From the NCBI GenBank assembly GCA_044229975.1, contig JBGARZ010000004.1, forward strand, positions 96,001 to 160,000: a stretch of 64,000 nt of DNA, given 5' to 3'. A program made the translations under genes and the position numbers. Position 1 is the first letter of the stretch. Every line of letters starts with the position of its first letter. Source of the stretch: Polyangiales bacterium (GTDB lineage: Bacteria > Myxococcota_A > Polyangia > Polyangiales > Ga0077539). Positions 36,044 through 36,828 of the stretch are shown here, piece by piece. Under the pieces are notes generated by a model. The model saw only the letters and a list, made by a program, of their open reading frames with translations. It was not told the DNA's origin and did no database searches.

Positions 36044-36200
36044 CGTGCGTGCCGCGGGTTGAAAACCCACGGCAACGATGGGGATGCTTCGGCATGACCC
36101 GAAGTCCGCGGCGGACTCTCAACAGGAGTCCGTTGCGGATTTCGAATGCCTTGCCCCAAGAGAACATCGTTGCCGTGGGATTCATCCCGCGGCACGGACG
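36044..36200 (+). ncRNA. Putative rod-like structured RNA (~155 nt)
   Basis: Nested stems GTGCCGCGGG/CCCGCGGCAC, CCCACGGCAACGATG/CATCGTTGCCGTGGG and an 18-bp apical stem with three G-U pairs on the plus strand. Confidence 0.45.
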
Positions 36201-36218: not shown

Positions 36219-36292
36219 TGATCGCGGCGGGAGTCGAACCCGCAAGCCCCGGGTTTTGAATCCAGGAGGTCTGCCCATTGCCTCACACGATC
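36219..36292 (-). tRNA. tRNA-Leu(CAA)-like, short variable loop, no encoded CCA
   Basis: Cloverleaf: acceptor GATCGTG/CGCGATC, anticodon loop TTCAAAA, T-loop TTCGACT, A73. Confidence 0.7.
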
Positions 36293-36301
36293 AGAGAGGA
36301 G

Positions 36302-36375
36302 TCCCCACACCCGGAATTGAACCGGGAAGCTCCTGCACCTCAAGCAGGCGAGTCTGCCAATTCCTCTATGCGGGG
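36302..36375 (-). tRNA. tRNA-Leu(GAG)-like, short variable loop, no encoded CCA
   Basis: Acceptor CCCCGCA/TGTGGGG, Leu-type D region GGAATTGGCAGAC, anticodon arm CCTGC-TTGAGGT-GCAGG, T-loop TTCAATT. Confidence 0.8.
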
Positions 36376-36377
36376 GG

Positions 36378-36538
36378 AGAGTGCGTCGAGACCCTCTTCT
36401 CATCGAACTCGCTTCAGATCCACGTCGCCCGGCGGCGTCCGTCCTCCCTTGCGTAGCAGGGGCTACGCGCGGTCGAACGTCCTTGCCGAGCTCGTGTCTC
36501 TTCGCGATTTCGACGAGAAGAGGGCCTCGACGCACTCT
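36378..36538 (-). ncRNA. Putative rod-like structured RNA in tRNA spacer (~160 nt)
   Basis: 35-bp closing stem with two G-U pairs on the minus strand, internal stems, apical GCGTAGC-CCCT-GCTACGC. Confidence 0.5.
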
Positions 36539-36539
36539 A

Positions 36540-36612
36540 TGCCCAGGGAGGGACTCGAACCCTCAAACTCCGGGGTCTGAAGCCGGCGTGTCTACCATTC
36601 CACTACCCGGGC
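36540..36612 (-). tRNA. tRNA-Leu(CAG)-like, short variable loop, no encoded CCA
   Basis: Acceptor GCCCGGG/CCTGGGC, D region GGAATGGTAGAC, loop TTCAGAC, T-arm GAGGG-TTCGAGT-CCCTC. Confidence 0.78.
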
Positions 36613-36651
36613 GGGCGTTGGTCGCCGGGATTGGAGGAGCGTCGCTTCAGG

Positions 36652-36723
36652 TCACAAGCGAACGACCGCCATCCCGGCGCCGGTAAGGCTTGGTGCGCGC
36701 AGGATGTTGGCGGTGGTCGACAT
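36652..36723 (-). CDS. Putative 23-aa leader peptide MSTTANILRAPSLTGAGMAVVRL
   Basis: ATG just downstream of the -10 box; overlaps a hairpin preceding the first tRNA. Confidence 0.35.
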   Translation of the reverse strand: MSTTANILRAPSLTGAGMAVVRL

Positions 36724-36732
36724 GACTCGCGG

Positions 36733-36768
36733 GTTGTACGCGGACTCCCTATTGGCGTCAAGGGAGTC
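36733..36768 (-). promoter_or_regulatory. sigma70-type promoter with overlapping palindromic operator candidate
   Basis: TTGACG-17 nt-TACAAC on the minus strand; GACTCCCT-N10-AGGGAGTC straddling the -35 box. Confidence 0.65.
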
Positions 36769-36828
36769 GGCAATAAAATGTTGATGGGACACTGAAGTGG
36801 TGTGAGCGAGGTCGGATGAAGCCGCCCG

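Follow-up and report, generated by a model that had tools for sequence, protein, structure and literature searches.

Spare short-arm leucine tRNA genes behind a short leader ORF in a Polyangiales genome: a probable case of attenuated backup tRNAs

Why does a bacterial genome with a complete set of long-arm leucine tRNA genes carry three more that lack the long variable arm, and when would these be made? The three genes lie on the minus strand of a 64,000-nucleotide stretch of DNA (the window) from a Polyangiales bacterium. In our best reading, to which we assign a probability of roughly 0.65, they are backup tRNAs controlled by ribosome-stalling attenuation. The most informative part of the locus is a short leader ORF that was overlooked when the window was read earlier from its sequence alone.

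The tRNA genes, their promoter and their leader ORF

The sequence-only reading had described three minus-strand leucine cloverleaves with short variable loops and two 31-39 mismatches, and we confirmed this using ARAGORN and Rfam, with all three genes exceeding the RF00005 gathering score of 29 bits (Table 1). The variable loop is 5 nt in each tRNA (AGTTT, AGCTT, and GGCTT), and all three have A14-A15 with U48, A73, and no encoded CCA. The mismatches are C31.C39 in the CAG tRNA and A31.C39 in the CAA tRNA, while the GAG tRNA is paired; position 37 is A in the CAG tRNA and G in the GAG tRNA. The missing CCA is unremarkable because most housekeeping tRNAs of the source genome also lack it and the genome encodes two PF01743 nucleotidyltransferases.

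The source genome (G000; 10.0 Mb, ~71% GC, 93% complete) contains a full set of long-arm tRNA-Leu genes elsewhere (TAG, CAA, GAG, TAA, and CAG). A PF13603 search of this genome returned one strong LeuRS match of ordinary architecture, with an insert of leucine-specific-domain size before a KMSKS-like motif, and two weak matches besides. No second or dedicated LeuRS was found by this search or among 36 flanking ORFs from 13 short-arm loci. Because the long-arm set is complete and there is one LeuRS, we regard the three short-arm genes as spare copies. The five long-arm genes rule out that the short-arm genes are the housekeeping set, and the accessory status proposed earlier is borne out. With a leucine anticodon, a short loop, and coexistence with type II tRNAs and a single LeuRS, the genes have the features of type I bacterial tRNA-Leu. 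Identity elements read from the tRNA genes favour LeuRS, and leucylation is predicted.

Table 1. Features of the short-arm tRNA-Leu locus, in positions of the window.
Feature	Position	Strand	Basis or remark
AT-rich UP-like promoter element	36767..36788	-	sequence reading; identical in L266
Palindrome around -35 box (GACTCCC...GGGAGTC)	36743..36768	.	sequence reading
sigma70-like promoter (TTGACG -35, 17-nt spacer, TACAAC -10)	36733..36761	-	sequence reading
Leader ORF, 23 codons, MSTTANILRAPSLTGAGMAVVRL	36652..36723	-	between promoter and first tRNA
Predicted switch hairpin, leader ORF 3' half + C-rich spacer	36620..36681	-	-37.6 kcal/mol, z -4.8
tRNA-Leu(CAG), short-arm	36540..36612	-	ARAGORN; Rfam RF00005 59.3 bits
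163-nt palindromic REP/MITE-like repeat, between tRNA 1 and tRNA 2	36376..36538	.	absent in relatives
tRNA-Leu(GAG), short-arm	36302..36375	-	ARAGORN; Rfam RF00005 51.9 bits
tRNA-Leu(CAA), short-arm	36219..36292	-	ARAGORN; Rfam RF00005 40.0 bits
Second palindromic REP-like repeat, downstream of operon	36044..36200	.	absent from L266

The sigma70-like boxes upstream of the genes were read from the sequence, and a consensus scanner made no minus-strand call there. Both boxes are kept in a metagenomic homologue of the operon (L266), in agreement with the earlier suggestion that the set has its own promoter. AT-rich tracts similar to the UP-like element occur upstream of other spare and housekeeping tRNA promoters in the source genome. 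The palindrome around the -35 box was rejected as an operator, being lost in L266 while the -35 box, the -10 box, and the AT-rich element are kept; control through an operator, as had been supposed, is thus not upheld.

The 163-nt repeat that separates the first two tRNA genes is an insertion and lies outside the ancestral operon. It is missing from L266 and from sequencing run X14, is rare in the source genome, and is multi-copy in two other genomes (G001 and G021); its copies dominated a DNA search of 60 relatives. As an inserted multi-copy repeat, this inter-tRNA hairpin was ruled out as a structured RNA of the operon, and non-tRNA matches in the Rfam search stayed below threshold. The downstream repeat has dozens of copies in the source genome and belongs to an unrelated family. 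The neighbouring genes in the window encode a DUF6665 protein (upstream) and a Ser/Thr kinase, and the neighbours differ in L266.

The leader ORF starts with an ATG 9 nt after the -10 box and is separated from the first tRNA gene by a 39-nt spacer; given the 9-nt gap, its transcript would be nearly leaderless. Leucine is encoded at codons 8 (CTG), 13 (CTT), and 23 (TTG), which by itself is no significant enrichment (3/22 codons, P 0.33). L266 has the same leader and the same three tRNAs in different flanking DNA, and its codons 8-13 encode LRALRL. Close relatives have LRALRL or LRALSL, i.e., three leucines in six codons. Codon 11 is CTA (Leu) in L266 and run X4, CTG (Leu) in runs X13/X15, and CCA (Pro) in the window and run X1. 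Leucine is therefore present at codon 11 in three of the four leader alleles seen, and the CTA/CTG change is synonymous. Judging from these alleles, the window leader is a weakened form of the three-Leu cluster.

Conservation in relatives, which had been proposed as a check, supports the operon: it is kept in L266 at a different genomic site, with a compensatory swap (T-A to A-T) in the anticodon stem of the GAG tRNA. Position 37 of the GAG tRNA is A in L266 and G in the window. Contigs from three of three RNA runs (two studies), at low depth, contain only the leader and tRNAs of an L266-type operon, and a probable DNA run also covers its flanking gene; the sequencing runs contained under half of the query words. 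The confinement of RNA-library contigs to the operon is a weak hint of expression. A search of eight same-genus genomes (64-94% complete) found no short-arm Leu genes. In G003, the gene that follows the orthologue of the upstream gene (DUF6665) is greA/greB-like (named by eye), and no tRNA is present there. A tandem-tRNA pattern recovered only a housekeeping Tyr-Gly pair from five genomes of the genus, and this pattern is too narrow for the sister operons described below. Were the genes a silent, decaying remnant of an array gained by horizontal transfer, this would explain the absence from the eight genomes, the internal repeat insertion, the two 31-39 mismatches, and the leucine codon lost from the window leader. 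We nevertheless consider such a remnant highly unlikely, since all three tRNAs score above the Rfam cut-off, L266 keeps the operon at another site with a compensatory stem change and, more weakly, the RNA-library contigs cover the operon only.

Distribution of short-arm genes and codon-matched leaders

Of 30 family genomes, 13 have confirmed short-arm tRNA-Leu genes; 12 carry them within multi-isotype arrays and one has a lone TAA gene. A strict pattern search of 400 genomes of the phylum gave four matches with one confirmed tRNA, and relaxed ARAGORN settings on the source genome gave thousands of false calls. A tandem pattern searched in GTDB identified 55 loci, 50 with tRNAs and five without; a further eight tandem-pattern loci, in which the array starts at the edge of the fetched DNA, were left out and 42 loci were analysed. 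We estimate that viral short-arm Leu genes occur on ~700 stretches. Among 163 short-arm copies, A73 is retained in 160, U48 in 158, and A14-A15 in 129. The window operon shares the supernumerary nature and patchy distribution of L-arrays, but with three Leu genes it is not a single long multi-isotype array.

No conserved partner gene was identified among the 36 flanking ORFs from 13 loci. This bears on the possibility that the tRNAs serve solely to donate leucine to a non-ribosomal transferase (L/F-transferase, CDPS, or Fem-type), to which the unusual tRNA body, the Leu-only cluster, and a single L/F-transferase gene in the source genome would point. Donor use had been raised in the sequence-only reading and now seems extremely improbable: besides the lack of a common partner gene among those ORFs, no CDPS was found, the L/F-transferase gene is ~347 kb away, the neighbours here (DUF6665 and Ser/Thr kinase) are replaced by others in L266, and three anticodons that cover four Leu codons are sensible only for decoding.

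Several family genomes (G010, G013, G016, G017, G022, G024, and G026) have a conserved short-arm tRNA-Leu(TAA) apart from arrays, and this separate gene may be the housekeeping UUA reader in these seven genomes (G013 was checked with ARAGORN). The 5' ends of the long family L-arrays L219-L221 and L244 share a GGCC..GAGTCGGCCT-type hairpin. In L244 (6,880-7,200), a 76-codon ORF has an end complementary to this shared hairpin, and the two could possibly act together as a sensor of translation in general for the entire array. In the mixed arrays of Blastocatellia (L164-L209), an ORF of ~25 codons (..GGYLFNQHR type) is conserved upstream and a terminator lies ~40 nt ahead of the first tRNA; several of these arrays include long-arm tRNAs with the Ile anticodons TAT and AAT.

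The Leu set is one of about ten amino-acid-specific, dispersed spare tRNA loci in the source genome, so the Leu-only character that had seemed peculiar to it is not. Under a fixed rule, a promoter-linked short-ORF leader was detected at seven of ten spare loci versus one of 34 housekeeping loci, with loci sorted into spare and housekeeping by eye; the ORF at the single housekeeping match apparently extends through a tRNA gene next to it. When the leaders of nine operons were permuted among them, only 2 of 362,880 assignments fitted as well as the real one; leader starts for this codon-match test were chosen by eye. Cognate codons make up 20/41 of the leader (P 4e-12) before four Ser genes and a Cys-anticodon tRNA-like gene, 6/15 (P 1.5e-5; NSKPKNRNPKR) before Asn/Lys/Arg, 4/10 (P 3.6e-4; HHPHRY) before Tyr/His, and 14/33 (P 7.7e-4; DRERERER) before Glu/Glu/Arg/Asp. 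The leader of the Arg(CCT) operon contains three rare AGG codons and that of the Gly/Gly operon reads GGRGRGTG. Besides the Leu leader, two had no significant match, those of the Tyr-only operon C34 (1/10) and of C16 (9/104).

Further features were observed at these spare loci. The tRNA-Cys(GCA)-like gene that heads the Ser x4 operon (C32 ~448,880-448,950; L252) was missed by both ARAGORN and Rfam and was read by eye; it matches a CCC..C run in the leader of its operon. A Schlafen/AlbA_2-domain gene lies convergently just downstream of this operon. At C16 (42,026-42,698; L249), a 105-codon ORF extends across a divergently oriented tRNA-Trp gene, and its last part, a Gln-rich stretch and a Phe codon, directly precedes Phe, Gln, and Gln tRNA genes. 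At C21 (31,400-32,800; L253), a 50-codon leader with an antiterminator arm and a U-tract terminator precedes HNH, tRNA-Thr(CGT), and a tRNA-like RNA that we take to resemble Y RNA. RNAs similar to it are located at both TROVE loci (C2 10.4 kb and C4 126 kb). The HHPHRY leader belongs to two paralogous operons (C4 11,660-11,868 and C34 314,473; L247 and L248), both of which end in a 197-aa RF-1/PCRF (prfH-like) gene and have a spare tRNA-His with U37 in place of G37.

Leu-rich leaders were also found in other phyla. An upstream ORF with at least four Leu in eight codons precedes 9 of 17 Leu-dominated loci versus 2 of 25 mixed loci (Fisher P 0.003; several of the 42 counted loci are kin), and the two mixed-array positives are Leu/Ser blocks with Leu/Ser leaders. 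The other 8 of the 17 Leu-dominated loci fall below this threshold, and an antisense control for Leu runs was borderline (3/17, P 0.052). Examples come from Gamma- and Alphaproteobacteria, Limisphaerales, Acidobacteriota, Obscuribacterales, and Deinococcaceae, where a His/Cys/Leu-rich leader precedes Cys, three Leu, and His genes. CTA is present in all nine Leu-rich leaders. A hairpin with a U-tract terminator was detected in 9 of 13 hand-picked other-phylum leaders. Full-length equilibrium folding gave a switch in only four of nine terminator leaders. When the ribosome was placed at the Leu codons, the 5' arm of the terminator paired with the ORF in 8 of 8 hand-picked leaders (P 0.56-0.97), compared with 0.00-0.46 in the same leaders without a ribosome; the transcript was cut at the terminator loop in this test, and the zero pairing obtained at the stop codon is built into the set-up. 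The terminator-type version also occurs in a named isolate, Marinicella sp. W31 (L199), with only two Leu codons. Long-arm Leu genes are kept in five of five checked genomes with leader-gated operons.

These leaders count against another explanation, in which the operon is a fragment of an L-array under a promoter-bound protein repressor, as TrcR is for the Anabaena trn operon, and the leader is incidental or vestigial. Family relatives do carry short-arm Leu tRNAs in long arrays with HNH, the G026 array contains a TROVE-like ORF, and HNH, prfH-like, and TROVE genes occur at other spare loci of the source genome. An AT-rich quasi-palindrome recurs upstream of several promoters, and the window leader alone is not Leu-enriched. 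A repressor, though, leaves unexplained both the matching of leader to anticodon in each operon and the Leu leaders with terminators in other phyla, and the promoter palindrome is not conserved. We therefore consider this explanation unlikely, and note that repressor and leader control could coexist.

The leader might instead sense leucine starvation and the short-arm tRNAs be charged with another amino acid (e.g., Met, Ile, Val, or norvaline), trading accuracy for elongation. This would explain why a sensor of Leu shortage produces more tRNA with Leu anticodons, and it fits the absence of the long arm, which LeuRS recognizes in many bacteria. On the other side, A73, U48, and A14-A15 are mostly kept among the 163 short-arm copies, Leu anticodons presumably misfit the determinants of IleRS, ValRS, MetRS, and PheRS, and ordinary-shaped Ser, Glu, His, and Gly tRNAs in the source genome are gated by the same leader design. 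The known charging of type I tRNA points both ways. Streptomyces LeuRS leucylates a type I tRNA-Leu(CAA) via its leucine-specific domain and E. coli LeuRS does not, as described by Fan et al. (PMC6614811), and because the E. coli enzyme leaves this tRNA uncharged, leucine charging is not assured here. Taken together, we judge mischarging to be improbable.

A proposed ribosome-set switch and its purpose

Folding of the leader region predicts a hairpin between the 3' half of the ORF and the C-rich spacer (Table 1). A ribosome placed at codons 8-11 allows this hairpin, and one placed at the stop codon melts it and, in these folds, leaves a C-rich stretch (C16/G5 over 30 nt) just before the tRNA. 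There is no U-tract after the hairpin and no intrinsic terminator at the window locus. Compared with a classical attenuator, the locus thus lacks the terminator and has a ribosome-set alternative structure in folding predictions only. When the tRNA was included in the fold, on and off states did not separate consistently. The acceptor strand of the first tRNA was sequestered for C2, C33, and C34 and not for Leu, C4, C19-Asn, and C36, results that are weakened by the in silico misfolding of unmodified tRNA. C-over-G skew at the leader 5' ends is high in four of nine operons (Leu, C36, C32, and C16); it was dropped as a signal, gene starts being also C-skewed (mean 0.10, 90th percentile 0.40).

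Under ribosome-stalling attenuation, a ribosome slowed at the Leu codons of the leader would allow transcription to continue into the three tRNA genes, which would thereby be made when housekeeping Leu-tRNAs fail. A stall at codons 8-11 would allow pairing between the C-rich spacer and the 3' half of the leader; once a ribosome reaches the stop codon, the spacer would be left bare. We infer Rho as the read-out of the bare spacer because there is no U-tract, the source genome encodes Rho (one rho gene), and a stall-favoured stem-loop masks a Rho site in Salmonella mgtL. By this analogy the Rho step is possible, with odds slightly below even, because the exposed segment (~30-39 nt) is short for Rho and several sister leaders are not C-rich (the bare spacers of the terminator-less leaders C2 and C4 have C14/G12 and C9/G11). 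Control through tRNA folding or processing is an alternative to Rho.

We infer a backup purpose because an extra tRNA-Leu remedies the loss of a working tRNA and not plain leucine starvation. An accessory, promoter-driven, and conserved set fits the role under translational stress that had been suggested for it. The short-arm tRNAs would be leucylated by LeuRS, and with their altered body (which lacks the long arm and in most NAG copies has A37) they may function when housekeeping tRNAs are cut or undermodified. A37 is present in short-arm NAG tRNAs in 76/87 copies from GTDB loci, 19/20 family copies, and 34/77 viral copies, while all 16 long-arm NAG tRNA genes have G37. When m1G37 is lost, ribosomes stall at CUA in leuL and attenuation is relieved (Masuda et al., PMC8384417). 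Backups with A37 would bypass an m1G37 failure; the GAG tRNA of the window keeps G37. Phage tRNAs have altered anticodon loops that are proposed to evade host nucleases (PMC10264068). Escape from Schlafen-type cutting of long-arm tRNAs was set aside as having no direct support: the bacterial Schlafen report concerns cleavage of the anticodon arm of tRNA-Lys and, in the portion of that paper available to us, does not mention Leu (PMC13056530).

These observations allow a broader proposal, which we put forward tentatively and with a little less than an even chance of being right. In several phyla, groups of spare tRNAs would each be gated by a leader in their own codons and form a self-repairing supply, in which only the backup of the failed tRNA is switched on; the Leu backups, with no long arm and mostly A37 instead of a TrmD-methylated G37, would escape the nuclease or modification failure that triggers them. 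If true, this would explain redundant, odd-looking bacterial tRNAs and the timing of their production, and it would amount to codon-specific feedback on tRNA supply that would matter when cells recover from tRNA-cutting defence systems or from loss of modification. The short arm alone is already known. Attenuation is likewise known for amino-acid synthesis and synthetase genes, and no paper describing tRNA genes under leader-peptide control turned up in the full-text literature searched, which holds few subscription journals. What is added here is a bacterial genome in which the design is repeated for each amino-acid group, its terminator-less and terminator-type versions, and the A37 contrast.

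Comparison with known systems

The operon probably behaves as an amino-acid attenuator does, although it lacks the terminator that strict membership of this class requires. Among the closest known systems are the leader-peptide transcription attenuators of amino-acid operons, such as leuL of E. coli (PMC8384417). Other examples are hisL, trpL, and pheM. As described for attenuators of this type, a short leader ORF with cognate codons follows a sigma70-type promoter and its 3' part can pair alternatively, and the Leu loci of other phyla also share the GC hairpin with U-tract and frequent CTA codons. In contrast to them, the output is tRNA genes, not enzymes, and one genome has separate leaders for each spare tRNA group; the window locus further differs in having no intrinsic terminator and three Leu codons only.

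In Salmonella mgtL/mgtA, a stem-loop in mgtL masks a Rho site (PMC5021804). Similarly, the predicted stall-favoured stem-loop here would hide a C-rich segment that full translation exposes, in a genome that encodes Rho. Unlike mgtL as described there, the target is tRNA, the exposed segment is only ~30-39 nt, and Rho dependence is a prediction.

The trn operon of Anabaena PCC 7120 is one long operon repressed by TrcR at direct repeats (PMC8421152, PMC10272220), and the word 'leader' is absent from the available text of the TrcR paper. As in this operon and in L-arrays, the tRNAs are supernumerary, patchily distributed, and tied to translational stress, and HNH and RNA-repair type genes accompany them. 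Unlike the trn operon, the spare genes of the source genome are spread over about ten small operons that have codon-matched leaders.

The tRNAs themselves are most like the type I tRNA-Leu(CAA) of Streptomyces coelicolor, which has a short loop and coexists with long-arm isoacceptors and a single LeuRS (PMC6614811). The type I gene is the sole CAA tRNA in S. coelicolor according to that account, whereas here three short-arm isoacceptors duplicate long-arm ones and stand behind a leader.
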